From assembly GCA_029858565.1 (NCBI GenBank), contig JAOUEV010000014.1:1-60283 (forward strand): a stretch of 60,283 bases of DNA, in the 5' to 3' direction. Below, piece after piece: positions 9,653-45,100 of this stretch. A program made the position numbers and the translations under genes. Origin of the DNA: Nitrospirota bacterium (GTDB taxonomy: Bacteria; Nitrospirota; UBA9217). Position 1 is the stretch's first letter, and every line of letters begins with the position of its first letter. The notes below the pieces were generated by a model. It was not told the origin of the DNA. It searched no databases and saw nothing but the letters and a program-made list of their open reading frames with translations.

Positions 9653-10312
9653 TTGAAACACTGGCTTGAGACCTACTCCATAATCGATTTCATCTCTGTC
9701 GGGATCCTTTTGACCGCCGTCACGTTGAACGCATTCAAGAGCATCGAATCCTATGTCAAGGCCTATACGATCAACTCCTGGCTTCTGGCGGGATTGATCG
9801 CCGTGGTCGGGGTTCTGGTAAATGAATCCCATCTGTACATGGCCGCGGTGCTCACGGTCCTGACCAAGGGCGTTCTGATCCCGATCATCATCTGGCGCAT
9901 CATTCGCCGGATGCGCGTGGCCCATGAAGTGACGCCCTATATCAGCAATACACTGTCCCTGGCGATATCCGGCATCCTGGTAGCCGTTGTGTACGCTTCG
10001 CTCCAGGGAGGGATATTCGTGACGGGGTTCTCGCGCGACGCGCTCCAGATCTCCATCGCCGTGATCCTGATCAGCCTGTTCATCATGATCACACGAAAGA
10101 AGGCATTGACCATGGTCATGGGGCTGCTGTTCATGGAGAACGGACTGTTCCTTGCCGGGTTTTCCCTGACCTTCGGCATGCCGACGATCATCGAACTGGG
10201 CGTGCTCTTCGATATGCTGATGGGCGTGATCATCCTGGGGATCTTTGCAGTGCAGATCAAGCGGGTCTTCGCGTCCGCTGATCTAGACAAGCTCACGGTG
10301 TTAAAGGGGTAG
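9653..10312 (+). CDS. hyfE: Ehr/hydrogenase-4 subunit E, module 1
   Basis: Multi-TM; TKGVLIP, MENGLFL, GMPTIIELGVLFD; TTG start after GAGG. Confidence 0.88.
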   Translation: MKHWLETYSIIDFISVGILLTAVTLNAFKSIESYVKAYTINSWLLAGLIAVVGVLVNESHLYMAAVLTVLTKGVLIPIIIWRIIRRMRVAHEVTPYISNTLSLAISGILVAVVYASLQGGIFVTGFSRDALQISIAVILISLFIMITRKKALTMVMGLLFMENGLFLAGFSLTFGMPTIIELGVLFDMLMGVIILGIFAVQIKRVFASADLDKLTVLKG

Positions 10313-10316
10313 AACA

Positions 10317-10344
10317 AGTGCGGAGCGCGGAGTGCGGAGTGCGA
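10317..10344 (+). repeat. Short heptamer tandem repeat (AGTGCGG x4, imperfect)
   Basis: AGTGCGG AGCGCGG AGTGCGG AGTGCGA between hyfE and hyfF of module 1. Confidence 0.75.
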
Positions 10345-10370
10345 AATAATAATAAATCGCGGAGAACGGC

Positions 10371-11852
10371 ATGTTAACCGTGCTTTTGATCCCGATAATC
10401 ACAGCCGTGCTGTGCTATCTCGTGAAAAGCCCGAGGTTCATCGGTTACGTCAGCCTCGCGGGGATGTCGGTGCTTGTCGTCGCGGCAGCGAGACTCATCG
10501 CAGCCTCTCTCGCGGCTCCGGTGTACGAGTTGCAGGAAGCGCTGTTCATGGACGCGTTCTCCGCCTACGTGATGGCGCTTATGCTGTTCTACAGTTTCGC
10601 GGCAGCGGTCTACTCGATCAGCTACCTTCAGCATGAGTTCGAGACGGGCTTGATCGATATCCGCGGCATGCGGCGGTACTACGGTCTGTTCCATCTCTTT
10701 GTCTTCACCATGCTGCTGGTGGTCGCGGCGAACAACCTGGCGCTCATGTGGATCGGCATGGAGGCCACGACGATCGTCTCGGCGCTCCTGATCGGCCTTG
10801 GTTTTCACAAACGGCCGCTCGCGGTCGAGGCTGCGTGGAAGTACATTGTTCTCTGCACCGTGGGCATCACCTTCGCGCTTCTCGGCACGTTCATCACCTA
10901 CTACGCGGCATCCTCGGTCGTCGGGCACGAGAGCGCGCTCAACTGGACAGTCCTGTCAGGGATCGCCGCGAAATTGAATCCCGGCACCATGAAACTTGCA
11001 TTCATTTTCATGCTGGTGGGCTACGGCACCAAGGCGGGCCTCGCGCCGGTACATAACTGGCTGCCTGACGCGCAGAGCCAGGCGCCGAGCCCCATAAGCG
11101 CGCTCCTGCCGGGCTGGACCGCGTTCTATGCGATCATGCGTTTCCTGGCTATCGTCAGCCCCTCGACCGGCGTCTCCTTTACCGGCAACCTGCTGGTTAT
11201 CTTCGGTCTCATTTCCATCGGCATCGCAGCGATATTCATCGTGGTTCAGGACAATTACAAACGGTTGCTCTCGTACAGCAGCGTCGAACATATGGGTATC
11301 ATGGCGCTGGGTGTGGGCATCGGCGGGCCCCTGGGTTTTTACGGATCGTTGCTGCACATGCTTGGCAATACCTTTGCCAAGCCGCTCATGTTCTTCACTT
11401 CAGGAAAGATCCAGGCACGGTTCGGGTCAACGAACATCGCCAACGTAACAGGCGTCTTCTCCTCCATGCCGCTCCTCGGGGCGATGACGTTCATCGGAGC
11501 CCTCGCGCTTGCCGGTTCGCCTCCTTTCAACATATTCATCAGTGAGTTCACGATATTGAAGGCTGCGGCTGACAAGGGCATGTGGCTTGTTCTTGGTATT
11601 TTTCTGTTCTTTGCCGCAGTTGTTTTCTACGGAGTGCTTTCCGGATTCGGCAAAATGCTTTTTGGCGATCCTGGCAGGGAAAGCGGTGCCGGATCGCTTG
11701 TGCGGCCCCGAATCCCGGTCACCGTAGGCACTGTTCTCGGCAACGGCATCATGATAGCTATGACTGCTTCGATCGTGGTCATGGGTTTTACCATACCGCA
11801 GTTCATCGACCGGACCATCAGGGCGTGCATAGCCGCCCTGGGAGCTAATTGA
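10371..11852 (+). CDS. hyfF: Ehr/hydrogenase-4 subunit F (NuoM/MrpD-like), module 1
   Basis: MEATT, EAAWKY, GYGTKAGLAPVHNWLPDA, YSSVEHMG, PPFNIFISEF. Confidence 0.88.
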   Translation: MLTVLLIPIITAVLCYLVKSPRFIGYVSLAGMSVLVVAAARLIAASLAAPVYELQEALFMDAFSAYVMALMLFYSFAAAVYSISYLQHEFETGLIDIRGMRRYYGLFHLFVFTMLLVVAANNLALMWIGMEATTIVSALLIGLGFHKRPLAVEAAWKYIVLCTVGITFALLGTFITYYAASSVVGHESALNWTVLSGIAAKLNPGTMKLAFIFMLVGYGTKAGLAPVHNWLPDAQSQAPSPISALLPGWTAFYAIMRFLAIVSPSTGVSFTGNLLVIFGLISIGIAAIFIVVQDNYKRLLSYSSVEHMGIMALGVGIGGPLGFYGSLLHMLGNTFAKPLMFFTSGKIQARFGSTNIANVTGVFSSMPLLGAMTFIGALALAGSPPFNIFISEFTILKAAADKGMWLVLGIFLFFAAVVFYGVLSGFGKMLFGDPGRESGAGSLVRPRIPVTVGTVLGNGIMIAMTASIVVMGFTIPQFIDRTIRACIAALGAN

Positions 11853-11853
11853 T

Positions 11854-13422
11854 ATGAATCCTGCGCTCAAAGAGTCCCGCTCACGGCGTGAATTCCGCAA
11901 CGAGGTGTATCTCGAATACGGAGCAGCGGACTTTCACGATGTCTGCTGCAGTCTGGTGAAGGACCACCGCGCGCTCCTCAGGCTCATGTTCGGCACTGAT
12001 GAGCGATTGCGTGACGGTTCCTTCCGGATCTACGCCGTTTTCTCCATTCCCGGGCAGGACCGGTTCCTGATCCCTGTTCTGCAACTGGGCGACAAGGAAT
12101 CATCCTTTCCCTCGATCACTTCGGAGGTTCCAGCGGCCCAATGGTATGAGCGGGAGATCAGCGACATGTTCGGGTTATCTCCTGAAGGCCATCCGGACAC
12201 GCGCCGTCTGGTGTTCCATGAGGCCTTTCCCGCTGGATCGCACCCCCTGCGCAAGGACTGGAGCATAACGGATGAGGAAAAGGCCGTATGGGGCGAGGGG
12301 AGAAAGATCAATGTGCCTCATCCCTTCATGGAAGTGGCAGGCGAGGGCATTGTCCAGATCCCGGTGGGTCCGGTGCATGCCGGGGTCATCGAGCCGGGTC
12401 ATTTCCGGTTCAGCGCGATCGGTGAAACGATCTTCTTCCTCGAACCGAGACTGTTCTACACCCATAAAGGCACGGAAAAGCATTTCGAAAGCTTCGGGTT
12501 TTCCGACGGGGTGCGGCTTGCGGAACGGGTTTCCGGCACTGATTCCTTTTCCCACGGCGTCGCCTATTGCATGGCCGTCGAGCGGATGATGGGGATCGAG
12601 ATCACGGAAAAGGCCGCGGCGGTCAGAACGCTCGGCATGGAACTCGAGCGATTGTATAATCATATCGGTGATATAGGTTTCCTCTGCGCAGGAACGGCGC
12701 TTGCCGTGGGATACGCCAAGGGAGCAGTCATCCGGGAGGAACTCCAGTGCTTGAACGAACGTCTCACCGGCAGCCGGTATCTGCGCGGGGTCAATGCGGT
12801 CGGCGGCGTGACCACGGATATGCTGGAACACGCCGACGACCTGCTGCGGACACTGGACTCGGTAACGGTCGAGTATAAAAGCATGATGAAGCTCCTGCTT
12901 TCTTCGGTCTCCCATGTGGAACGTCTCGAGAATACCGGGAAGCTGTCCCGGGACATCGCGGCCCGTCTCGGCGTGACCGGCGTGGCCGCGCGGGCCTCCG
13001 GCCTTGCAGATGATGTCAGGAAATCTCATCCGCATCTGCTGTACGATCGGATGATCTTCGAAGCACACACCCTGGAAAAAGGCGATGTGCTCGCGCGGAT
13101 GCTGATCAGGGGGGAGGAGGCCGAGTGCTCCATCTCCATGGTCCACGAGCTCCTGGAAAGCTCGTACAGGGGAGGTCTGACCGTTGCGGTGAAGCGTCCG
13201 GAAGCCTATGCTTCAGCGCTGGGATATGTGGAATCTCCCCGGGGATCGCTGTTCTACTGGGTCATGTCAGACAAAGAAGGAAAGCCGTTCCGCGTGAAAT
13301 TGCGGACGCCGTCCTATTGCAACTGGCCTGCAGTCCCTTTTGCCGTGCACGGCAATATCGTTCCCGATTTTCCGCTGTGCAATAAAAGCTTTAATCTTTC
13401 CTATTCCGGCTGCGACCGGTGA
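11854..13422 (+). CDS. ehrL: Ehr large subunit (HycE/HyfG-like NuoC-NuoD fusion lacking NiFe ligands), module 1
   Basis: WYERE..HPLRKD (NuoC part); GPVHAGVIEPGHFRF, HKGTEK, ELERLYNH, ESPRG; L1 site ERVSGTD and C-terminal NLSYSGCDR lack the CxxC pairs. Confidence 0.88.
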   Translation: MNPALKESRSRREFRNEVYLEYGAADFHDVCCSLVKDHRALLRLMFGTDERLRDGSFRIYAVFSIPGQDRFLIPVLQLGDKESSFPSITSEVPAAQWYEREISDMFGLSPEGHPDTRRLVFHEAFPAGSHPLRKDWSITDEEKAVWGEGRKINVPHPFMEVAGEGIVQIPVGPVHAGVIEPGHFRFSAIGETIFFLEPRLFYTHKGTEKHFESFGFSDGVRLAERVSGTDSFSHGVAYCMAVERMMGIEITEKAAAVRTLGMELERLYNHIGDIGFLCAGTALAVGYAKGAVIREELQCLNERLTGSRYLRGVNAVGGVTTDMLEHADDLLRTLDSVTVEYKSMMKLLLSSVSHVERLENTGKLSRDIAARLGVTGVAARASGLADDVRKSHPHLLYDRMIFEAHTLEKGDVLARMLIRGEEAECSISMVHELLESSYRGGLTVAVKRPEAYASALGYVESPRGSLFYWVMSDKEGKPFRVKLRTPSYCNWPAVPFAVHGNIVPDFPLCNKSFNLSYSGCDR

Positions 13423-30375: not shown

Positions 30376-30395
30376 CGGCTTTTGCTGAATGTACC

Positions 30396-30424
30396 TTGAC
30401 AAGATTGGGGCATGTCCCTATAAT
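30396..30424 (+). promoter_or_regulatory. Consensus sigma70 promoter
   Basis: Perfect TTGACA, 17-nt spacer, TATAAT. Confidence 0.8.
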
Positions 30425-30454
30425 AGCGCAATAATTCGAACAACTACCGCCTTC

Positions 30455-30907
30455 ATGGATACTATCGATATACTCCATAAGACCCTCTTGTTCCGGGGCT
30501 GCAACAAGGAAGACCTGGAACTGGTCGCAGGACTGTTCCAGCAAAGAGTGGTCAAGCCGAACATGACCATCTTCACCGAGAAGATGCCTGCCGAAGCGCT
30601 GTACATCATCAAAAGCGGTAGCATCCGGATCACCACCATGGCAGGGGAAGGTGAAGAGGTCGGACTTTTGCACCTGGGGCCCGGCGATTTCTTTGGAGAG
30701 ATCGCGCTGCTGCAGGAATCCAGCAGGGCGGTGACTGCCCGTGCCGAAAGTATGACTGAAGTGCTCATGCTGACGCGGAAGGATTTCCAGGCGCTCATCG
30801 ACCTCGATCCCAGGATCGCCGCCAAGGTCACTCTCTCCATAGCCAGGCTCCTGGCCATGCGCGTCAAGGCATACAGCACCAAGCTTCGGGACATCCTTCT
30901 TTCATGA
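30455..30907 (+). CDS. Stand-alone cyclic nucleotide-binding domain protein
   Basis: LYIIKSG, GPGDFFGEIALL...RAVTARA; no HTH. Confidence 0.88.
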   Translation: MDTIDILHKTLLFRGCNKEDLELVAGLFQQRVVKPNMTIFTEKMPAEALYIIKSGSIRITTMAGEGEEVGLLHLGPGDFFGEIALLQESSRAVTARAESMTEVLMLTRKDFQALIDLDPRIAAKVTLSIARLLAMRVKAYSTKLRDILLS

Positions 30908-31869
30908 TCCTTGCCGGGATCGATATCGGAACTAATACCATACGCCTGCTCGTGGCGGATATCAGCGATCAGGGCCACCGGGAACTTTACTCGGGAAGGC
31001 AGATCACCAGGCTCGGACAGGACCTGGACCGAACAGGGGTTCTGTCTTCTGAAGCCCAGGAAAGGTCGCTTGCGGCCCTGCGGGAGTATACTACGGTGAT
31101 CAACAGGTTCCCCGGGTGCCGGACCATGGTCATTGGCACGAGCGCACTGCGGAACGCCAGGAACGCGGCCGAGTTCATCGATACTGTGCGCGATACGACC
31201 TCGCTCGGGATCAGCGTCATCAGCGGAGAGCAGGAGGCCAGGCTCACGGTTCTCGGCGTCCGTCGCGCGCTTACCCAGGGCAGGGAGACGGAGAGGGATC
31301 CTCTCCGTTCCGCCCTGGTGATCGACATCGGCGGCGGAAGCACCGAACTTATCATTGTCAGAAATGGCGTTCCTGATGCGGTCGCAAGTCTTCCACTTGG
31401 CGCGGTCTATCTTACGGAAAGGTTCGTGCGTCATGACCCGCCTTTGCCGGAAGAGTTAGAGGAACTGAGCAGGGAGATCATGCTCCTTCTTGACGCGTGG
31501 GAAATCGATATTCTCCGCACGCACGCGTTGAGACCGTCGTCACTAGCCGTGCTTGCCGGCACTGCCGGAACGATCACGACCCTGGCTTCCATGGAGCAGC
31601 GGCTTGCAGTCTATGATCCCGCGCGCATCAATGGCTTCATACTGACAAAAGAGGCTCTTGACGGCTGGTCGGACCTTCTTGCCCGGACCAGCGTCAAGGA
31701 CCGTAGGAACATCACCGGCCTTGAACAGGGCCGCGAGGATATTGTTCTTGCGGGCGCTCTGATCGCGCGGGACATCATGGACCGCTACGGCCGGCAGGAG
31801 ATGATCGTAAGCGACTGGGGGCTTCGCGAAGGGATCGTGTTCCATCTGGCCGAACAGGAACGACTGTAG
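30904..31869 (+). CDS. ppx: Ppx/GppA family exopolyphosphatase
   Basis: IDIGTNT, GTSALR, EARL, DIGGGSTE, GLREG. Confidence 0.9.
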   Translation: MILAGIDIGTNTIRLLVADISDQGHRELYSGRQITRLGQDLDRTGVLSSEAQERSLAALREYTTVINRFPGCRTMVIGTSALRNARNAAEFIDTVRDTTSLGISVISGEQEARLTVLGVRRALTQGRETERDPLRSALVIDIGGGSTELIIVRNGVPDAVASLPLGAVYLTERFVRHDPPLPEELEELSREIMLLLDAWEIDILRTHALRPSSLAVLAGTAGTITTLASMEQRLAVYDPARINGFILTKEALDGWSDLLARTSVKDRRNITGLEQGREDIVLAGALIARDIMDRYGRQEMIVSDWGLREGIVFHLAEQERL

Positions 31870-31892
31870 ATGAAAGAAAGGGACGTGCTTTG

Positions 31893-33263
31893 ATGCGAGA
31901 TGCCCGTATTCTTATCATGGATGACGACCCGGTTGATCGGGGCAGGATAGAGACATCCCTGCGCGGAAAAGGCTATGACGTAACAGCAGTCGGTCAGGTC
32001 GATCAGGCCATCGAAGTGCTGCGGCGAGAGCGCTTTGATCTGTTCCTGACGGACTGCAATATTCCCGGAGTTGACGCTCTGCAGACCTCGGGCGAGGCAA
32101 GACGGATCAATCCGGACCTGGCCGTGATCATCATGACCGCATTCGGGACCATCGAGACGGCGGTAAAAGCGATCAAGGCCGGAGCCTATGATTATCTTCC
32201 AAAGCCCATCGACCTTGACCAGTTGACCGTTCTTATCGAGCGTGTTTCTGAACGCCAGAACCTGATACGCGAGAACACCCAGCTTCGGGAACAGCTGATC
32301 GAACGGTACCGTTTCGATGAGATAGCAAGCACGAGCCACGCAATGGAAGAGGTCATTAATCTCGCCGGCAGGGTGGCGGGAAGCACGGCCACGGTTCTGC
32401 TTCGAGGGGAGAGCGGTACGGGCAAGGAACTGATCGCCCGGGCGATACATTACCACAGCCCTCGTTCGGCTCAGGCGCTCATAAAGATCAATTGCGCGGC
32501 CCTTCCGGAAACCCTTCTGGAAAGCGAGCTCTTCGGCCACGAAAAAGGGGCCTTTACGGGCGCATCGGCCCGGCGTGCTGGCCGTTTCGAACTTGCGGAC
32601 AAAGGAACGATCTTCCTCGATGAGATCGGAGATGTCTCGCCGGGTGTCCAGGTGAAGCTGCTGCGCGTACTGCAGGAGCGGGAATTCGAGCGGATCGGCG
32701 GGAACCAGACGATCAAGACCGATGTCCGGGTCATTGCCGCGACCAATCGCGACCTTGAGCAGGCCATACGGGAAGGTCGCTTCCGCGAGGACCTGTACTA
32801 CCGCCTGAACGTGGTCACCATCGCGATCCCTCCGCTGCGCGACCGAAAGGAGGATATTCCCGCGCTGCTTGACCATTTTATCAAGAAGTTCGCAAAGGAC
32901 AATCGAAAGAAGATAGCAGGCGTTTCTGTCGAGGCCCGGGACGTGCTGATGCGGTATTCCTATCCCGGGAATGTGCGTGAACTGGAGAATATCATGGAAC
33001 GGGCGGTGGTCCTTGCGAACGGGACGGTCCTCACCGTCGCTGACTTGCCCCTGCACATGCGGTCCGTCGATAGCGAGGAAAAGATCTGTGTCAAAAAGCA
33101 GGGGTCGTCGCTGAACGATACGCTGGATACGGTCGAACGGGGATTGATCATCAAGGCGCTGAAGGATGCGGATGGCGTCCAGACCCGGGCTGCCGACCGA
33201 CTTGGGATCAGTGAACGGGTACTGCGTTACAAACTGAAGAAATACAAGATCCGTGAATCATGA
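31893..33263 (+). CDS. Sigma54-dependent response regulator (NtrC/AtoC family)
   Basis: REC domain with phospho-Asp, GESGTGKE, GAFTGA, FLDEIG, PGNVREL, C-terminal Fis HTH. Confidence 0.93.
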   Translation: MRDARILIMDDDPVDRGRIETSLRGKGYDVTAVGQVDQAIEVLRRERFDLFLTDCNIPGVDALQTSGEARRINPDLAVIIMTAFGTIETAVKAIKAGAYDYLPKPIDLDQLTVLIERVSERQNLIRENTQLREQLIERYRFDEIASTSHAMEEVINLAGRVAGSTATVLLRGESGTGKELIARAIHYHSPRSAQALIKINCAALPETLLESELFGHEKGAFTGASARRAGRFELADKGTIFLDEIGDVSPGVQVKLLRVLQEREFERIGGNQTIKTDVRVIAATNRDLEQAIREGRFREDLYYRLNVVTIAIPPLRDRKEDIPALLDHFIKKFAKDNRKKIAGVSVEARDVLMRYSYPGNVRELENIMERAVVLANGTVLTVADLPLHMRSVDSEEKICVKKQGSSLNDTLDTVERGLIIKALKDADGVQTRAADRLGISERVLRYKLKKYKIRES

Positions 33264-37954: not shown

Positions 37955-37988
37955 ACTCGGATCGCACTTGCGGTCCGAGTGTTTTTTT
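37955..37988 (+). terminator. Intrinsic terminator after pilA
   Basis: ACTCGGATCGC-ACTT-GCGGTCCGAGT followed by a T-tract. Confidence 0.8.
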
Positions 37989-38035
37989 ATTATAATATGT
38001 TTTGCGTTTTAGTGGTAAAAAAAAGGGGGGGCTGC

Positions 38036-38785
38036 GTGAAGGCTCTTGAGACTCAAGGCATATCAAAAGGATTTGCTGGAAATATCGGCGTCAAGAGGAT
38101 ACAGGCGCTGTCCGATCTGAACTTGCAGATCGACCAGGGTGAAGTCTTTGGATTTCTCGGCCCAAATGGTGCGGGTAAATCAACGTCTATTAAAATATTA
38201 TTGAATCTCATTTATCCGGACTCCGGTCGCGCAACCATTATGGGCAAGGACGTGAAGGAGAAGGAGGCGCGAAGGCGCGTAGGTTATCTTCCTGAAAACC
38301 CCTATTTCTATGACTATCTGTCCGCCGATGAATTACTCTGGTTCGCCGGACGTGTTTCTGGAATTGACAAAGAAGAGTTGAAAATTCGTGCTGACATGCT
38401 GCTTCACAAGGTAAATCTGCAGAAGGCGCGTTCAAGACATATAAGAACTTACTCAAAAGGGATGGTGCAGCGCGCTGGTCTTGCAATGGCGCTGATTCAT
38501 AATCCGGACATCATTATTCTCGATGAACCCATGAGCGGACTTGATCCCCTCGGAAGAAAGATGGTGGGTGATTTGATACTTGACCTAAAATCCCAGGGGA
38601 AAACGGTTTTCTTCTCCTCCCATATTCTGACAGATATCGAGCGGTTCTGCGACAGGGTTGGCATTATTGTGGGGGGGGAACTGCAACTGATGGATACATT
38701 GGACAACTTGTTAAAGAATAATGCGACGCTTGAGGATATTTTCCTGAAGGTCGTAGAAACAGCAGGCGGAGGGAACGAGGCATGA
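38036..38785 (+). CDS. ABC transporter ATP-binding protein (PilH/XapD-like)
   Basis: GPNGAGKST, YSKGM, LDEP, SSH; directly after the pilin. Confidence 0.88.
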   Translation: MKALETQGISKGFAGNIGVKRIQALSDLNLQIDQGEVFGFLGPNGAGKSTSIKILLNLIYPDSGRATIMGKDVKEKEARRRVGYLPENPYFYDYLSADELLWFAGRVSGIDKEELKIRADMLLHKVNLQKARSRHIRTYSKGMVQRAGLAMALIHNPDIIILDEPMSGLDPLGRKMVGDLILDLKSQGKTVFFSSHILTDIERFCDRVGIIVGGELQLMDTLDNLLKNNATLEDIFLKVVETAGGGNEA

Positions 38786-39594
38786 TAGTACTCTGGCCGA
38801 TAGCGGCAATCACTTTCAAGGAAGGCATCAGGGACAGGGCTCTTTACGGTATAACGCTTTTTGCGCTATCGCTTCTGGGTTTCAGCCTCCTGCTTTCGAA
38901 CATGGCGCCCCGTGATGTCGGGAAGGTGGCTGTGGATATGGCGCTTTCCACTATATCATTCGCTGGTTTGCTCCTCGTCTTGTTCGTGGGAATTAATCTC
39001 ATGGCAAAGGACCTGGACAAGAGAACGATCTACTCGGTCCTGTCCAGGCCTGTTTCCCGATCGGAGTACGTCGTCGGTAAATTCTTCGGGCTGTGCCTCC
39101 TGATCGTCGCAGTTGTGGTTTTCTTGAGCATATTTGCGCTTCTCTCCATCCTCATGCTCAAATTGAGTTACCCGAATTACTTTGAAAAGTTCGCCTGGTC
39201 CCTGGTAATCCTCGCGATCACATTCGAGGGCGCTATGCTGATACTTCTGTCAGCGATCAGTTTTTTCTTCGCTTCCCTGACGTCAACGTCTTTTGTCACG
39301 CTTGTGCTGACGGTCATATCCTACCTTATCGGAAACTCTATCCGTGACGTGAAAGCTCTAGTGGAGTCGCCCGCAGCGGCCGGTATCCAGATATCGCCTG
39401 TCATGGTTAAAACCGTGCAAGCCGCATACTACCTTTTCCCAAATCTCTCTTTGTTCGATGTCAAGATACAGGCTGCCCATGGCCTTCCGATCCCCTTAAA
39501 CTATATTCTCCTGCTTTTATTGTATTTTGTCGTCTATTCCAGCCTGGTGATCACGCTTGCGGCGCTGATTTTCAGGCGCAAGGAGTTCCCCTGA
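38782..39594 (+). CDS. ABC transporter permease (PilI-like)
   Basis: About 6 TM; KRTIYSVLSRPVSRSEYVVGKF; FPNL. Confidence 0.85.
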   Translation: MIVLWPIAAITFKEGIRDRALYGITLFALSLLGFSLLLSNMAPRDVGKVAVDMALSTISFAGLLLVLFVGINLMAKDLDKRTIYSVLSRPVSRSEYVVGKFFGLCLLIVAVVVFLSIFALLSILMLKLSYPNYFEKFAWSLVILAITFEGAMLILLSAISFFFASLTSTSFVTLVLTVISYLIGNSIRDVKALVESPAAAGIQISPVMVKTVQAAYYLFPNLSLFDVKIQAAHGLPIPLNYILLLLLYFVVYSSLVITLAALIFRRKEFP

Positions 39595-40457
39595 TGCGGA
39601 GGCTGTTGACGGCTGTCATATTCATGCTTCTTTGTATTGCGCACGTCGTTATTCTGGAAAAGGCGTCGGAGAGCAGGAATACGCTCCCTGTAGTCAATGA
39701 TACCGAGGAGATGGTTTTACCATCGTCGGTCCTGAAGATATCGTCCGGCGAATTCGACTCGCTCGTATCGGATTACCTTTTCCTCAAAATGCTGGTGTTT
39801 GCTGGTGAAAAAACAGACGAACGCGGAAGTGTGATCATGACTGATCAGGAATGGAGGCTGTTCTATCAAACGCTTGAAGCGTCGAGCGATCTGGATCCCT
39901 ATTTTGTCGATCCCTATTTCATCGGCAATGCGTTTCTGACCTGGGATGGGAACATGATCAAGGAGGCCAACGCTCTTTTGGAGAAGGGGAGCCGCCACCG
40001 CGATTGGGATTGGTCACTGCCTTTTTTTCTAGGGTTTAATCACTTTTTCTTTTTGGATGACAACGAAAAAGCCGGCACATATATGATGGAAGCGGCGCGC
40101 AGACCCGGAGCCAGCCCGAGTTTGGCAGGACTAGCGTCGAAACTTGCGTTCAAAGCCAATCGTGTCGAGACGTCAATCGCTTTTTTGGAAGAGATCCGGA
40201 ATAGCACCGAAGACGAAAGCCTCAGGAAACTCTACGAGACCAGGATTGAAGCGTTGAGGGCGATCCTTGTGTTGGAACAGGCGGTGGACGTTTACCGGAA
40301 AAAATACACGAAAAGGCCTCTGGAAATAGGTGATTTGATAACGGCAAAGATCATAGCGGAAATTCCGGTTGATCCATATGGAGGAAGGTTCTATATCGAC
40401 AAATCGGGATCGATAAAAACGACGAGTGAAAAAGAGTTACTGCCGCATCGCAGATGA
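39594..40457 (+). CDS. Pilus-associated TPR-like membrane protein (PilG/XapA-like)
   Basis: N-terminal TM, LDPYF..PY, W.LPF.LGF, C-terminal PVDPYGG; position in the pilA-ABC cassette. Confidence 0.65.
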   Translation: MRRLLTAVIFMLLCIAHVVILEKASESRNTLPVVNDTEEMVLPSSVLKISSGEFDSLVSDYLFLKMLVFAGEKTDERGSVIMTDQEWRLFYQTLEASSDLDPYFVDPYFIGNAFLTWDGNMIKEANALLEKGSRHRDWDWSLPFFLGFNHFFFLDDNEKAGTYMMEAARRPGASPSLAGLASKLAFKANRVETSIAFLEEIRNSTEDESLRKLYETRIEALRAILVLEQAVDVYRKKYTKRPLEIGDLITAKIIAEIPVDPYGGRFYIDKSGSIKTTSEKELLPHRR

Positions 40458-40510
40458 TGATGCCGCATGCGCATGTTGCGGTTGTTGTATTTAGGTAACG
40501 GGTGTATCGC

Positions 40511-40978
40511 CTACCGTCCCATCCGCTTCTCTTCCTGCCTCATATCCAGCTGTTTCAGCCGTTCTATATTCTTGTTCAGTCGGTCGTTTTCGCGCCTCGC
40601 GTCAAGAATGGCCTTGATAGCGTGACGCCAGTTGCGCGCATCATTGGTCAGTTCGTGATTTGGATACTGCGTAATGAACTCATCAAGCTTTGCAAGGGAC
40701 TGTGCATAGTCTTTCTGCTGGTTGTCCGCCGATACATAGACCATGGCTATGCCGTACAGGGCAAATGCGGACTCCGGTGAGTTTGGATGGTCTTGCATGA
40801 TCTTGCGATACGCATCGATTGCTCCCGTGAAATTCCCGGCTGTTGCAAGTTCGGAAGCATGTTTGACCTGCAGCGCTTCGGCTGACTCCCGAGATCCGGG
40901 ATGGGCGCCGGGAAAGATGGCGCATCCGGCGACAGCCAAGGAGAGAGTAAATATCCCGATCAGGTAAAACTTGGTCAT
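40511..40978 (-). CDS. TPR lipoprotein with C-terminal coiled coil
   Basis: VAGC lipobox; TPR-like helices; C-terminal LNKNIERLKQLD; ATGA overlap with the upstream GGDEF gene. Confidence 0.75.
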   Translation of the reverse strand: MTKFYLIGIFTLSLAVAGCAIFPGAHPGSRESAEALQVKHASELATAGNFTGAIDAYRKIMQDHPNSPESAFALYGIAMVYVSADNQQKDYAQSLAKLDEFITQYPNHELTNDARNWRHAIKAILDARRENDRLNKNIERLKQLDMRQEEKRMGR

Positions 40979-42378
40979 CCGGTCCTCCGTTTGTCGATCA
41001 CATACACGCTCTTGGGTATCGTTTTCGCGTAGTCCTTGAGTTCAGCGGCGATCTCGGATGCTTCAAGCGGGCTGTTGATCTGGCGCCGTTCGTTAGTGAC
41101 GATCGCGATCGATATGGTCATGATCGGGAACTTCATGTCGATTCCTTGACGCGTCTTACCCAATATGTACCCATTCTTCAGGTCTGATTCTTCATAAAAT
41201 TCCTGGATACGTCGGTCAAAGCTGCTGATGACCTCTTCACAGATCGGCCGCATGCGTTCAGGAACGGTTATAACGACGAAATCATCTCCGCCGATATGTC
41301 CGGTGAAATCATCGGACGCGCCCTTTACCTTGACCGCGTGTTCGATAATATGCGCCGTTTCCTTGAGAACTTCGCTGCCCTGGGCATAGCCGTAGCGGTC
41401 ATTATAGGATTTGAAATTATCGAGGTCAAACGTACACAGCGCGAGCGGGAGTTTGTTCTCGATCCTTTTCTTGAGGATATTTTCAATGGCGATCCCGCCG
41501 GGGAGACGGGTCAGGGGACTGGCATCGAGATACATCTCTTCCAGTTTTTTGAGCCGTGCTGCCATATCTACAAAGGCAGTGGAAAGGACCCCGATCTCGT
41601 CGCTGGTCTTGATCTGGGGGTCATAGCTGAAATTGCCTTCAGCGATCTGTCGCGTGGCGACCTTGAGCTTGTTGATAGAAGAGGAAATATGATGCGTTAC
41701 AACAAGGCTGCCGAGGATCCCGAGCAGGATGCTGAGGATCGAAAGCAGTGCCGTCATGAAAAATGCAGACCTTCCGATAAAGCGGATCTGCTCCATTTTC
41801 GTGTCACGGGCCTTGCTTGCCTTGCCCGACTCTCCTCGCAGAAGCTCTATGATCTTTTCAGATTTCTTTTTTAGCTGGCCATTCGATATTTTCTGCGCCT
41901 GCTCCCGCTTTCCAGCCTGAATGAGTCCGACCTCTTTCTGGAAAAAACCGGTATATTCAGTGTACAGGGTCTCGAGTTTGTCGAAAGAGGCATATCCGTG
42001 ATTCGGCAGGGTTTTTATGGTGTTGAACCATTGACGAAATTCTTCGCCGCGCTTCAGGAAGAGGGTCTTCATATCCGGACTATTGAGAATGAGGTAACGC
42101 TTTTCGTAGGTATCCTGGGCAATGATCGCTTCCAGCATTTTGTCCGATGCATCCTGGATGGGAACGTCCACGGTAACGATGCTGTTCGTCAAATTATTGA
42201 GTCGTTGAAGACTGATGAGTGCATAGGACACGACAACAACGGTCAGAAGTACCAGGACCATGTATCCGGCAAGCATTTTGCTCGCGATATCGAGACGACC
42301 GAACAGCTCTTTAGGAGTCAGGAACTCGAGGAATGCGGAGGGAACTATGTCGGTCAATTTTGAAATTCGAAAATTCAC
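40975..42378 (-). CDS. Membrane sensor dinucleotide cyclase (2TM + periplasmic helical domain + HAMP + GGDEF), Hypr-type signature
   Basis: Two TM helices, HAMP (DEIGVLSTAF), DLDNFKSYNDRYGYAQGSEVL, HIGGDDF. Confidence 0.88.
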   Translation of the reverse strand: MNFRISKLTDIVPSAFLEFLTPKELFGRLDIASKMLAGYMVLVLLTVVVVSYALISLQRLNNLTNSIVTVDVPIQDASDKMLEAIIAQDTYEKRYLILNSPDMKTLFLKRGEEFRQWFNTIKTLPNHGYASFDKLETLYTEYTGFFQKEVGLIQAGKREQAQKISNGQLKKKSEKIIELLRGESGKASKARDTKMEQIRFIGRSAFFMTALLSILSILLGILGSLVVTHHISSSINKLKVATRQIAEGNFSYDPQIKTSDEIGVLSTAFVDMAARLKKLEEMYLDASPLTRLPGGIAIENILKKRIENKLPLALCTFDLDNFKSYNDRYGYAQGSEVLKETAHIIEHAVKVKGASDDFTGHIGGDDFVVITVPERMRPICEEVISSFDRRIQEFYEESDLKNGYILGKTRQGIDMKFPIMTISIAIVTNERRQINSPLEASEIAAELKDYAKTIPKSVYVIDKRRTG

Positions 42379-42424
42379 GCCTTTAGCTTAACAAACCTTC
42401 CCAAGAATGTCAAATATTTCATTA

Positions 42425-44434
42425 TTATTCAGGTGATTCGTCCTGGATCGCACTCTCGGGAACATCCTGGATCTGCTCATCGCAGTATCGCCGCGGTTCC
42501 GTCCCGGGAAGAAAAGCTTCTCGCAAGGATACGGTGCATTGTTCGGAACTCAACAGGCCTGACCGTGGATCGATGTTCTTGAAGATGATATTGGCAGGAA
42601 CGGGAAAATCCGCTGGCTCGGTCCCCCTGAGAGCCTGCTTCATGAATGTCATCCAGAGGGGAAGCGCTGCCCGGGCGCCGGTGGCTTTTGAACCGAGGCT
42701 GCGCTGATCATCATAGCCCACCCATACGCCGGCAGCCAGGGTCGGTGTATATCCTATGAACCAGGCATCCCGATAATCATTGGTGGTGCCTGTTTTGCCG
42801 GCGACCGGGCGGCCGAGTTCCCGTGCTTTCCACCCTGTGCCGCGTTCCACGACGCCTTTCAGCAGATTGGTGATAATATACGCTGTTTCCGGCCTCATTG
42901 CTTGAACAGGCGCCGGTTCATTGGAATAGAGTATGCGACCAGTGCTGTCGGTGATCTGGATGATCGCCACCGGATCGAGCCGGATGCCCTGATTGGCAAA
43001 AGTCGCGTAGACCGACGTAAGCTCAAGCAGAGTAATGTCCGAACTACCCAAGGCGAGAGAAGGGACTTCCTTCAACGCGCTATTAATACCCAGTTTTTTT
43101 GCAAATCTCACGGCATCTTCCATCCCTATGTCGGCAAGGAGCCTGACCGTAGGAACATTTAAGGACTGGGCCAGCGCCTTTCTGAGCGTCACGCTACCCT
43201 GGAACGTGCGGGTAAAGTTTTCAGGCATCCACGTGTTTTTTCCGTCCAGCTTAACGGTCAAAGGGGCATCTGTGAGCCGATCTACGGCACTGTAGCCCTT
43301 TTCAATGGCAGCGGCATATACCACGGGTTTAAAGGCCGATCCCGGTTGCCTGAGAGCCTGCCAGGCACGGTTGAACTGACTTTCAGCATAGTCACGTCCC
43401 CCGACCATGGCAAGAATATGCCCGGTAGACGGAGAAATAACCACGAAGGCGGCCTGTACTTTGTATCCATCCGCAGCGGGTCGTTTCGTGTTTTTTTCCA
43501 GAGTTGCGAGCCAGGAGTGGACGCTGTCCTCTGCATAAGATTGAAGCGTATCATCGATGCTCGTATAAATATTCAATCCGCCTGAATAAAGGATGCCGGA
43601 ACCAAACCGCTCCTCCACTTTCTGGCGAATATATTCCACAAAATACGGCGCAGGATTGGGACCTTTCTGGACAAACTTCCGCTGATCAGGAAGGGGGCTC
43701 CGGTCCGCTTCGGACGCAGCCTCCTCAGATATGACCTTTAGCACCGTCATCCGCTGAAGAACATAAGAGCGTCTCTTTCTGGCGCCATCTGGCGAGAGGA
43801 AGGGGGAATAGTATTTTGGCGAGCGGGGCAAGCCGGCAAGAAGTGCGCATTCCGCCAAGGTAAGATCACGGGAATTCTTTCCGAAATAGGTCTGAGCAGC
43901 TGACTCGACGCCGTATGCACCGTTCCCGAAATAGATCTGGTTCAGGTAAAAGGACAGTATCTCTCTTTTTGTGTACCGCTGCTCGATCTTCAGTGCCAGA
44001 AGCATTTCTTTGAGTTTCCGCCGATAGTTCCTTTCCGGTGTCAGAAAGAGCACCTTGGCAAGCTGCTGGGTGAGCGTGCTGCCGCCCTCCAGGATCTTCC
44101 CGGCACGGATGTTCCGATAGGATGCGCGAAGGATGCCGCGGACATCGACACCGAAATGCGAGTTAAAGCGCGCGTCCTCGGTAGCGATCAACGCTTTGAT
44201 AAGCATATCCGGAACATCATTGATGTTCACCGGCGTCCGGTTCTCGAGAAAAAACTCGGCCAACAGCCGGTTAGAGCTTGAGTAGACCCGGGTTGTGATG
44301 CTCGGCTTATATTCTTCGAGCTGATGCACCTCGGGAAGGTCCCATACTGAATAGAGAATGAGGCCGATAGCGCCGCCGATCGCGATTGCCGTGATCACGA
44401 GCGCAAGAAGGCCCAGCGTTGTCCTTATATTCAT
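42425..44434 (-). CDS. mrcA: Class A penicillin-binding protein PBP1A family
   Basis: EDARF..H.G, GGSTLTQQ, RKLKE transglycosylase motifs; SAFK, SLN, KTG transpeptidase motifs. Confidence 0.9.
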   Translation of the reverse strand: MNIRTTLGLLALVITAIAIGGAIGLILYSVWDLPEVHQLEEYKPSITTRVYSSSNRLLAEFFLENRTPVNINDVPDMLIKALIATEDARFNSHFGVDVRGILRASYRNIRAGKILEGGSTLTQQLAKVLFLTPERNYRRKLKEMLLALKIEQRYTKREILSFYLNQIYFGNGAYGVESAAQTYFGKNSRDLTLAECALLAGLPRSPKYYSPFLSPDGARKRRSYVLQRMTVLKVISEEAASEADRSPLPDQRKFVQKGPNPAPYFVEYIRQKVEERFGSGILYSGGLNIYTSIDDTLQSYAEDSVHSWLATLEKNTKRPAADGYKVQAAFVVISPSTGHILAMVGGRDYAESQFNRAWQALRQPGSAFKPVVYAAAIEKGYSAVDRLTDAPLTVKLDGKNTWMPENFTRTFQGSVTLRKALAQSLNVPTVRLLADIGMEDAVRFAKKLGINSALKEVPSLALGSSDITLLELTSVYATFANQGIRLDPVAIIQITDSTGRILYSNEPAPVQAMRPETAYIITNLLKGVVERGTGWKARELGRPVAGKTGTTNDYRDAWFIGYTPTLAAGVWVGYDDQRSLGSKATGARAALPLWMTFMKQALRGTEPADFPVPANIIFKNIDPRSGLLSSEQCTVSLREAFLPGTEPRRYCDEQIQDVPESAIQDESPE

Positions 44435-44533
44435 GGAGTTCATTATACAACTGCTCATGTTGTTTTCACAAGATTGTCTCATGGACGCGGTAAGTAGCGT
44501 GGGATATCGAAAACAAGTGAATTGAAAAATGAC

Positions 44534-44562
44534 TTGCAATTGTTACCGCAATGTGATATTAA
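44534..44562 (+). promoter_or_regulatory. Putative sigma70 promoter of the rimP operon
   Basis: TTGCAA, 17-nt spacer, TATTAA with an extended TG. Confidence 0.5.
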
Positions 44563-44589
44563 GAACCATCACTCTGAGATTTATTTCGG

Positions 44590-44619
44590 GAGTGGGCAGG
44601 TTCCTTGCCCACTCTTTTT
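44590..44619 (+). promoter_or_regulatory. rimP leader terminator/attenuator hairpin
   Basis: GAGTGGGCA...TGCCCACTC + T-tract directly before rimP, matching the widespread rimP-leader hairpin. Confidence 0.75.
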
Positions 44620-44638
44620 ATTTGGCTGCAACCACTAA

Positions 44639-45100
44639 ATGTCTGATATTATTGGTAAAATAAAGCATCACTTGGTCCCTATCCTCGATGCAAAAGGTCT
44701 CACGCTCTGGGATCTTGAGTTTAAGAAGGATGGACCCAAATGGTTGCTCCGTCTCTTCATCGACAGGGAAGGAAGCGGAGTAACTCTCGACGACTGTGAA
44801 TCCGTGAGCAGGGACCTGAGCATGGTGCTTGATGTCGAGGATGCGATACCTCATGCCTACACGCTTGAGGTATCTTCTCCCGGACTGGACCGGACGCTCT
44901 CTCGCTTGGAGCATTACCAGAAATGCCTGGGAAAGCTCATTCGCATCAAGACGTTCCAGGCCATCGATGGTCAAAAGGTATTTCGCGGGGTACTGAAGGA
45001 CCTGCAAGGCACTATCGTGGTGCTCGGAACCGATAGCGGGACAGACCTGACATTGTCAATGGAAAACATCGCGAAAGCTTCGCTTGAGGTGGTTCTGTAG
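44639..45100 (+). CDS. rimP: Ribosome maturation factor RimP
   Basis: LRLFID, VTLDDC, YTLEVSSPGLDR. Confidence 0.95.
   Translation: MSDIIGKIKHHLVPILDAKGLTLWDLEFKKDGPKWLLRLFIDREGSGVTLDDCESVSRDLSMVLDVEDAIPHAYTLEVSSPGLDRTLSRLEHYQKCLGKLIRIKTFQAIDGQKVFRGVLKDLQGTIVVLGTDSGTDLTLSMENIAKASLEVVL

Follow-up and report, generated by a model that had tools for sequence, protein, structure and literature searches.

Signalling through cGAMP (3',3'-cyclic GMP-AMP) made by GGDEF enzymes has so far been described mainly in Deltaproteobacteria (Geobacter, Myxococcus, and Bdellovibrio). The founding Hypr GGDEF enzyme is GacA (GSU1658 and its Gmet homologue; PDB 5VS9 and 6D9M), a soluble receiver-domain protein in which Ser348 accommodates either purine (PMC6456294). 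According to the same report, serine is functional only with Asp as the third residue of the GGDEF motif (the Goldilocks rule), the fourth motif residue, Glu, is the cross-dimer general base, and Hypr enzymes have another residue where 94% of cyclases carry a cross-dimer Arg. Natural Ser/Thr enzymes have been reported with GGDE[F/Y] exclusively. In 2022, GSU1937 was described as a second cGAMP synthase of G. sulfurreducens and the only other GGDEF protein of that organism to carry the Hypr serine; its motif is GGDDF, it possesses transmembrane HAMP domains, and it carries neither EAL nor HD-GYP (PMC8835794). When it was deleted, the output of a cGAMP reporter fell by about 25% with fumarate and by about 70% with Fe(III) citrate, and one of four GacA-GSU1937 fusions had cGAMP and cyclic di-GMP (c-di-GMP) synthase activity that a GADDF mutation abolished. 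That report calls GSU1937 homologues numerous "within Deltaproteobacteria" and mentions no other group. The present work concerns a gene in a 60,283-nucleotide stretch of DNA, hereafter the window, that constitutes positions 1 to 60,283 of contig JAOUEV010000014.1 in the assembly of a Nitrospirota bacterium (GCA_029858565.1; GTDB lineage Bacteria; Nitrospirota; UBA9217). Judged by its sequence, the encoded cyclase belongs to a kind that is already known, the GSU1937-type Hypr GGDDF enzymes, here represented in Nitrospirota.

Architecture and active site

The cyclase is a protein of 467 residues encoded by an open reading frame (ORF) with a GTG start on the minus strand (40975-42378), the sole long frame at the site, and homologues of equal length share its N-terminus from residue 1. 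An original prediction made from this DNA had proposed a membrane-anchored HAMP-GGDEF protein, and this is borne out by a Pfam HAMP match and by two hydrophobic segments (residues 39-57 and 209-227) with about 150 periplasmic residues between them (Table 1). Pfam TarH matched residues 26-174 below its cut-off (E 2.3e-4), and PF05227 (CHASE3) and PF12729 (4HB_MCP) are precomputed in the sensor stretch of close homologues. The Pfam GGDEF match extends over residues 288-397 (51.8 bits) and covers only profile positions 5-113 of 161; TIGR00254 scored 53.8 bits. An AlphaFold2 (AF2) model of residues 276-467 had a predicted local distance difference test score (pLDDT) of 95.2, and a Foldseek search with it returned GGDEF domains at E values down to 3e-12, with GacA (6d9m) at rank 43. 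EAL and HD-GYP domains were absent from the protein by Pfam, and an NCBIfam scan gave no specific family for its clade.

The base-recognition stretch NDRYGYAQGSEVL (NDRYGYAQG-S-EVL) comprises residues 326-338, and the serine codon lies exactly where it had been placed. In phmmer searches against PDB chains, NDRYGYAQGSEVL aligned to NDTYGHLAGDEVI (3ign) and NDSYGHPGGDYVL (6hbz), and gap-free alignments to the NDxYGHxxGDxxL stretch of five solved cyclases (including 3ign, 6hbz, 8qj3, and 4yme) put Ser335 on the conserved Asp known as D344 in PleD. The same searches also matched 6d9m, a GacA fusion, and PleD (1w25; query residues 299-373 against chain residues 307-376). In a MAFFT alignment, the Ser335 column holds the Ser of a Geobacter GacA-like Rec-type protein (LFNYR ... 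HGHLMGSKVL ... GGDEF), Thr in another Geobacter GGDEF protein, and Asp in canonical cyclases. Together the two alignments uphold the proposed PleD D344 register. The cross-dimer column is occupied by Gly295 (LPGG----IAIE, against LFNYRYLD in the GacA-like protein and NRR in canonical cyclases), an assignment that is approximate given a 4-residue gap in the loop. The alignment further revealed a 15-residue insertion and a shortened "NRR" loop in the GGDDF-clade domain, while the sugar-face residue, Asn326, is retained.

The protein thus has Ser at the D344/S348 position, Asp as third motif residue, and a cross-dimer residue other than Arg, as Hypr enzymes do. Where a canonical diguanylate cyclase would have GG[D/E]EF, Asp344, a cross-dimer Arg, and an RxxD I-site, it has GGDDF, Ser335, Gly295, and ASDD, and only domain-level models (Pfam GGDEF and TIGR00254) accept it as a member of that class. 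The earlier claim that no RxxD I-site precedes the motif held, since the I-site position five residues before GGDDF reads ASDD (354-357), with no Arg. The companion claim that DLDNFK and GGDDF are intact needs qualification: both are present, and GGDDF is a variant in which the general-base Glu has become Asp. Among the closest 120 homologues, a motif search found Ser together with GGDDF in 118, the other two giving no motif match, which speaks against a chance occurrence, and Ser occupies the position in 26 of 29 best matches from Nitrospirota genomes.

Relationship to GSU1937, GacA, and YfiN

When the window protein was searched against two Geobacter sp. genomes, the best match in each was a transmembrane-HAMP gene (E 3.9e-86 each; 37% and 40% identity) aligned over residues 24-466, that is, full length. 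The reverse search returned the window gene as the top match of the Geobacter protein in the window genome (E 1.6e-86), followed by a paralogue on contig C108 (E 1.5e-76). Eighteen GGDEF domains of one Geobacter genome, G001, were typed as 15 Asp, 1 Thr, and 2 Ser. One of the two Ser domains is GacA-like (LFNYR, GGDEF), and the other belongs to the transmembrane-HAMP GGDDF protein, the only Ser plus GGDDF combination of the 18. This pair fits the description of GacA and GSU1937 (PMC8835794), and we infer that the Geobacter sp. gene is the GSU1937 counterpart.

The window protein therefore shares with GSU1937 the transmembrane and HAMP N-terminus, Ser at the S348 position, GGDDF, and the lack of EAL or HD-GYP, and is orthologous to the Geobacter gene; in the GSU1937-type Geobacter locus, as in the window, a homologous gene for a tetratricopeptide repeat (TPR) lipoprotein overlaps the 3' end of the cyclase gene. 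The two differ in that identity is only 37-40% across different phyla, in that the Geobacter protein has Asn at the cross-dimer position and Ala before the Ser where the window protein has Gly at both, and in that only members of the Nitrospirota family have a gene for a class A penicillin-binding protein (PBP1A family) upstream of the cyclase.

With GacA, the window protein has in common the base-selecting Ser, the third-motif Asp, the sugar-face Asn, a replaced cross-dimer Arg, and the GGDEF fold. GacA, however, is soluble with a receiver domain whereas the window protein has a membrane sensor; GacA has GGDEF with the Glu general base, an RxxD I-site, and a cross-dimer Tyr in place of GGDDF, ASDD, and Gly, and the GacA-like domain falls outside the GGDDF clade. 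The original prediction drew a contrast with receiver-domain GacA. It is not new, because GSU1937 has been published as a transmembrane HAMP enzyme.

A further comparison is with YfiN/TpbB (DgcN) of the YfiBNR system, likewise a cyclase in the membrane that has a HAMP domain and a periplasmic sensor and takes input from envelope proteins, including a lipoprotein encoded alongside. That enzyme is a canonical c-di-GMP cyclase with another sensor fold, and its partners are YfiR and the OmpA-like YfiB rather than a TPR lipoprotein. The window cyclase scored 47 bits against the YfiN model NF007423, whose cut-off is 325, and so is not a member; 7a7e was among the Foldseek matches.

The GGDDF clade and its distribution

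A search of 1.84 billion representatives gave 804 matches at E<=1e-30, one full-length Ser-type representative being a Geoalkalibacter protein. In a genome scan, assemblies of Geobacter sp., Geomonas, Syntrophus, Smithella, and Nitrospirota yielded full-length relatives; the distant loci considered here are the best 80 of at least 600 stretches, a set that does not include G. sulfurreducens itself. Among the matches listed, 19 full-length distant loci encode proteins that align with the window protein over 414-448 residues at 32-46% identity, with Ser in 16 and Asn in 3. Within the Nitrospirota, 62 of 151 sampled genomes had a match at E<=1e-40, and the cyclase was matched in 23 of 27 sampled genomes of the window's own family.

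In 137 full-domain representatives of the best 150, the base-selecting residue was Asp 62 times, Ser 44 times, Asn 30 times, and Gly once, and the motif was GGDDF in 121 and GGDDY in 13. The Asp types have other architectures; proteins with the four-helix bundle and HAMP have Ser or Asn, almost never Asp. Residues of the motif and of the metal and phosphate sites hardly vary between phyla: the likely active-site residues D318, K323, D327, G363, G364, D365, D366, R410, K448, and K452 are each at least 92% conserved across the clade in all three types, and D318, F322, and K323 at least 98%. The sugar-face Asn is lost in 16 of the 44 Ser-type representatives (to Gly, Ser, Ala, Val, or Thr) and never in the Asp or Asn types, which hints at a further change in substrate recognition.

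A FastTree analysis placed 54 GGDDF-clade domains as a monophyletic group (support 0.93) against 39 canonical domains from two genomes, with the GacA-like and GAF-type Ser domains outside it. This indicates that the Ser arose independently of GacA. Ser and Asn types were interleaved in an unrooted tree built without a canonical outgroup. The C108 paralogue of the window genome (G000:C108:5271-6590, plus strand; L029 592-2040) is 47% identical to the window protein and has the same architecture, but its base-selecting residue is Asn (YGYEHG-N-IVI, GGDDF). Several related genomes likewise contain both a Ser and an Asn form. In another genome of the family, G017 (100% complete), the sole four-helix-bundle/HAMP/GGDDF gene is Asn-type and the single GEMM-I riboswitch is A-type (see below), and a GAF-type Ser gene is present.

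A lipoprotein partner and a penicillin-binding protein

The cyclase gene is followed by a gene for a small TPR lipoprotein and preceded, by 46 bases and on the same strand, by the PBP1A gene (Table 1). A promoter and terminator scan of 40300-44800 gave counts not above those of shuffled sequence. The AF2 model of the lipoprotein (pLDDT 88) combines two TPR hairpins with a C-terminal helix of 42 residues, and its C-terminal motif N..IE.LK.LD.R.EE.R is conserved. By tblastn, the lipoprotein gene lies downstream of the cyclase in 25 of 29 best-match loci from other Nitrospirota genomes. A profile search found it directly downstream and on the same strand in 14 of the 19 distant full-length loci listed, Geobacter included, elsewhere in 1, and in none of the remaining 4. 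In Geobacter locus L035, the lipoprotein gene overlaps its cyclase gene likewise and its product matches the window lipoprotein (E 6e-9).

The PBP1A gene adjoins the cyclase in 15 of 29 Nitrospirota loci, all of them within the window's own taxonomic family. The window PBP1A, TPR, RimP, NusA, ABC, and pilin proteins served as tblastn queries against the 80 distant loci listed; none of these loci matched the PBP1A or TPR proteins at 1e-5, and PBP1A was adjacent in 0 of 80, indicating that this adjacency is confined to the Nitrospirota family.

Foldseek searches with the lipoprotein model returned generic TPR proteins only (BamD at 3e-3, YbgF at 1e-2). Identity with either BamD or YbgF was rejected, as the NCBIfam scores were below both cut-offs. 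Complex prediction for the sensor (residues 58-208) with the lipoprotein (residues 20-155) gave scores of 0.59, 0.02, and 0.04 against a mark of 0.32, which count neither for nor against a complex. In a structure search of the Atlas, look-alikes of the lipoprotein included clusters that join the same TPR module to a YkuD L,D-transpeptidase domain; these fusions offer a lead, and only that, toward a link with peptidoglycan. In Geobacter L035, a GAF-HisKA-HATPase-GAF-HD_5 (HD-GYP type) gene at 9968-12382 directly follows the cyclase and lipoprotein pair; its product is a candidate partner of the module, as a phosphodiesterase or a kinase.

Riboswitches and other cyclases of the genome

An Rfam scan of the window gave nothing at gathering scores; the riboswitches are on other contigs, where the window genome has three GEMM-I (RF01051) matches above the gathering score. 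The informative base, at model position 11, is unpaired and stands immediately ahead of a G-C pair that AAA follows; we take it to be G20 of Vc2, a mapping that rests partly on the Vc2 sequence. It is A in the element on contig C100 and G in the other two. The C100 element thus conforms to GEMM-Ib, that is, a GEMM-I fold with A in place of G20, the replacement described for cGAMP riboswitches (PMC6140456). The search for GEMM-Ib elements suggested by the original prediction has therefore yielded one A20-type element of three, and a Geobacter control agrees: A occupies position 11 in 15 of 19 GEMM-I elements of G001, as expected for the Geobacter cGAMP class.

The C100 element shares the A at the G20 position with Geobacter GEMM-Ib elements such as Gs1761 (PMC6140456), and it is accompanied by a terminator. 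The Geobacter elements read ACUAAACC; the C100 element reads AGCAAACC and has a long P3 insertion, and cGAMP is its putative ligand. The 3' end of its aptamer is shared with a terminator hairpin and U tract (-29.3 kcal/mol, z -5.4), which suggests an ON switch, and downstream lie two genes for CarboxypepD_reg-like lipoproteins, an arrangement retained in two of nine A-type loci checked. The 5' sequence of this element, CUUUGCUCAGAGCAAACC, recurs in the best matches of several genera of the family. GEMM-I elements were found in 30 of 31 family genomes, and the best element per genome was A-type in 10 of those 30.

Two further Ser-bearing GGDEF genes are present in the window genome, at L019 832-2052 (contig C89) and L023 955-2043 (contig C85). 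Both have the motifs LTGL.NYR ... NDRYGHLEGS ... GGEEF, in which NYR corresponds to the cross-dimer Tyr of GacA-like proteins, and their long N-terminal regions may be read as GAF-like. Matches of this type, at 62-67% identity, occur in all five family genomes tested and carry the same motifs in four. Their architecture resembles that of GacB of Myxococcus, a GAF-GGDEF Hypr enzyme (10.1101/600031). Their motifs conflict with a report that Ser with GGEEF is inactive and absent in nature (PMC6456294). The genome also encodes about 20 Asp-type GGDEF domains; a SMODS-type cyclase was sought in it and none was found.

The convergent pilin cassette

A type IV pilin cassette lies convergent to the cyclase operon (Table 1). 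The original prediction had called it Geobacter-like, and all four of its genes do have homologues in Geobacter G002, where those of the ATPase (49% identity), the permease (27%), and the 287-residue protein (32%) are clustered by two pilin genes (67% at the pilin N-terminus). This clustering makes the description apt. The gene for the 287-residue protein is convergent to the cyclase operon in 11 of 29 Nitrospirota loci. In G. sulfurreducens, the cGAMP reporter is lowered by insertions in the pilA-C and xap genes and raised by those in pilB (PMC8835794); a functional tie between pili and cGAMP thus has published support, to which adjacency of the cassette here adds little. About 4 kb upstream of the pilin gene, window positions 30389-33263 (plus strand) encode, in a row, a small cNMP-binding protein, a Ppx/GppA phosphatase, and a PilR-like sigma-54 response regulator (Rec-AAA-HTH_8).

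Table 1. Features of the cyclase locus and its surroundings in the window, with the A-type riboswitch of the same genome. TM, transmembrane segment.
Feature	Position	Strand	Basis
TM/four-helix-bundle/TM/HAMP/GGDDF cyclase gene, GSU1937 type of Hypr GGDEF	40975..42378	-	ORF, Pfam, reciprocal best match
TM1, residues 39-57	42208..42264	-	19-residue hydropathy window, mean 2.5
Periplasmic sensor, residues 58-208, four-helix-bundle/CHASE3/TarH type	41755..42207	-	Pfam TarH, sub-threshold
TM2, residues 209-227	41698..41754	-	Hydropathy 2.44
HAMP, residues 227-277	41548..41700	-	Pfam PF00672, E 2.2e-12, 47.5 bits
GGDEF-fold cyclase domain, GGDDF clade, residues 288-465	40984..41517	-	Pfam, AF2, Foldseek, tree
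DLDNFK, residues 318-323, metal and phosphate loop	41410..41427	-	Motif location
Ser335 codon AGC, base-selecting position (PleD D344 / GacA S348)	41374..41376	-	Motif location and alignments
GGDDF, residues 363-367; third Asp binds metal, fourth Asp replaces general-base Glu	41278..41292	-	Motif location; roles from PMC6456294
TPR lipoprotein gene, 155 residues, lipobox VAGC	40511..40978	-	Start overlaps cyclase stop by 4 bases; TPR_6/YfiO-type repeats (Pfam)
Class A penicillin-binding protein gene, PBP1A family	42425..44539	-	Pfam Transgly and Transpeptidase; TIGR02074 666.6 bits
Type IV pilin gene, GFTLIEL N-terminus, 196 residues	37333..37923	+	N_methyl; 67% identity over 63 residues to Geobacter short pilin
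Genes for ABC ATPase, ABC-2 permease, and a 287-residue protein of no family	37979..40457	+	Pfam
A-type GEMM-I riboswitch	G000:C100:8228-8329 (L001 1501-1602)	-	RF01051 54.8 bits, gathering 35

Proposed function and alternatives

The observed anatomy, residue register, family membership, synteny, and riboswitch presence are together best explained by an inner-membrane GSU1937-type cyclase that makes 3',3'-cGAMP in response to an envelope cue, an explanation that is probably correct as a whole. The cyclase is presumably a dimer in which a periplasmic four-helix-bundle sensor would drive the HAMP domain and this, in turn, the GGDEF-fold domain. In the predicted pocket, Ser335 replaces the guanine-selecting Asp and Gly295 the cross-dimer Arg, the metal-binding Asp residues are kept, and the c-di-GMP I-site is missing; ATP and GTP would be converted to 3',3'-cGAMP, probably with some c-di-GMP. 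The trigger may be an envelope cue involving the co-translated TPR lipoprotein, and in this lineage the cyclase gene would be co-transcribed with that for a class A penicillin-binding protein. The cGAMP produced would act on A20-type GEMM-I riboswitches, one being the apparent ON switch on C100 ahead of surface lipoprotein genes.

Several considerations weigh against this reading. The cGAMP product of the window enzyme, like that of any Nitrospirota member, is extrapolated from related sequences, a contribution to cellular cGAMP being known for GSU1937 alone, and the Geobacter comparison was made with Geobacter sp. assemblies and not with strain PCA or GSU1937 itself. The fourth motif residue is Asp366 rather than the Glu of Hypr enzymes, a departure that GSU1937 shares. 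In E. coli, neither full-length GSU1937 nor three of the four fusions had activity, and c-di-GMP was among the products of the one that did (PMC8835794). Since the GGDDF clade stands apart from GacA, rules derived from GacA may not transfer to it. A GSU3350 mutant with the D-to-S change remained purely a diguanylate cyclase (PMC6456294). The Geobacter cyclase gene lies away from the pilin cassette, its conserved neighbour being the TPR lipoprotein gene. As for the riboswitches, some A20 elements bind c-di-GMP too (PMC6140456). Two family genomes, G059 (97% complete) and G121 (95%), have no GGDDF-clade match at E<=1e-12 yet have an A-type best GEMM-I element, and this rules out a strict link between the gene and A20 riboswitches. 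The C89 and C85 genes are candidate alternative sources of cGAMP in the window genome. Because A20 elements occur in genomes without a family match and two other Ser GGDEF genes are present, the A-type riboswitch cannot be attributed to the window gene; it supports cGAMP signalling in the lineage and not the window gene in particular.

A different view is that the enzyme is in practice a diguanylate cyclase, making mainly c-di-GMP in the cell, with Ser335 merely loosening its specificity. The GSU3350 mutant fits this view, as do the c-di-GMP level of the GSU1937 fusion, comparable to that of GacA in E. coli (PMC8835794), the Asp of 62 of the 137 clade representatives, by which the ancestral chemistry of the clade may be c-di-GMP synthesis, and the G-type base that two of the genome's three GEMM-I riboswitches have. 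The four-helix-bundle/HAMP subfamily is, however, dominated by Ser and Asn with Asp nearly absent, which argues for selection against guanine-only recognition; deletion of GSU1937 lowers a cGAMP-selective reporter (PMC8835794); and the genome already has its roughly 20 Asp-type GGDEF domains. We consider this view unlikely.

Less likely still is that the enzyme makes another product (c-di-AMP, a linear dinucleotide, or another purine nucleoside triphosphate product), the Ser and Asn forms being specificity classes outside the GacA rules. The separation of the clade from canonical GGDEF domains, the 15-residue insertion with the shortened "NRR" loop, the loss of the sugar-face Asn in Ser types, the co-occurrence of Ser and Asn paralogues in one genome, and the acceptance of other purine nucleoside triphosphates by Hypr enzymes (PMC6456294) would all accord with such chemistry. 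So would GGDDF itself, which is the form of the motif in the Cas10 palm, the Geobacter homologue giving a weak, below-cut-off match to Pfam Cas10-Cmr2_palm2 (E 4.4e-4). Against it, the window protein retains Asn326, and the only member tested gave cGAMP and c-di-GMP signals, albeit with biosensors blind to other products (PMC8835794). That the GGDEF domain is catalytically dead and serves as a nucleotide receptor or membrane scaffold seems very improbable. Motif variants of the GGDDF sort usually lack activity, PA3258 being cited as a case (PMC8835794), no activity of full-length GSU1937 was seen in E. coli, and the Pfam match is partial; the residues of the motif and of the metal and phosphate sites nevertheless hardly vary between phyla, the AF2 model (pLDDT 95) has a complete GGDEF fold, the GADDF mutation abolishes the activity of the GSU1937 fusion (PMC8835794), and there is no I-site by which the protein could act as a c-di-GMP receptor.

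Implications for possible cGAMP signalling in Nitrospirota

What is new in this locus is the phylum, the conserved lipoprotein partner, the PBP1A-cyclase-lipoprotein operon, the Ser/Asn paralogy, and the accompanying A-type riboswitches. In a limited literature search, the terms Nitrospirota, cGAMP, and riboswitch were found together in no title or abstract. Taken with the A20-type riboswitches and the GacB-like genes, the window locus suggests that a full cGAMP pathway exists in a Nitrospirota family also. A broader proposition, which we advance only tentatively and regard as doubtful in its entirety, is that the cyclase and its dedicated lipoprotein form a cross-phylum envelope signalling module whose base-selecting residue toggles between Ser and Asn, that the products of Ser and Asn paralogues differ, and that cGAMP in Nitrospirota reports the state of the envelope. 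If this were true, the Asn form would represent an undescribed specificity class, and the operon with PBP1A would mean that cGAMP in Nitrospirota reports the state of peptidoglycan and envelope and not metal respiration. The variation between Ser, Asn, and Asp within one clade is a natural experiment on nucleotide choice by GGDEF enzymes, and the lipoprotein partner, together with the PBP1A operon of the Nitrospirota family, provides a testable idea of the signal that this poorly understood type of enzyme may read.

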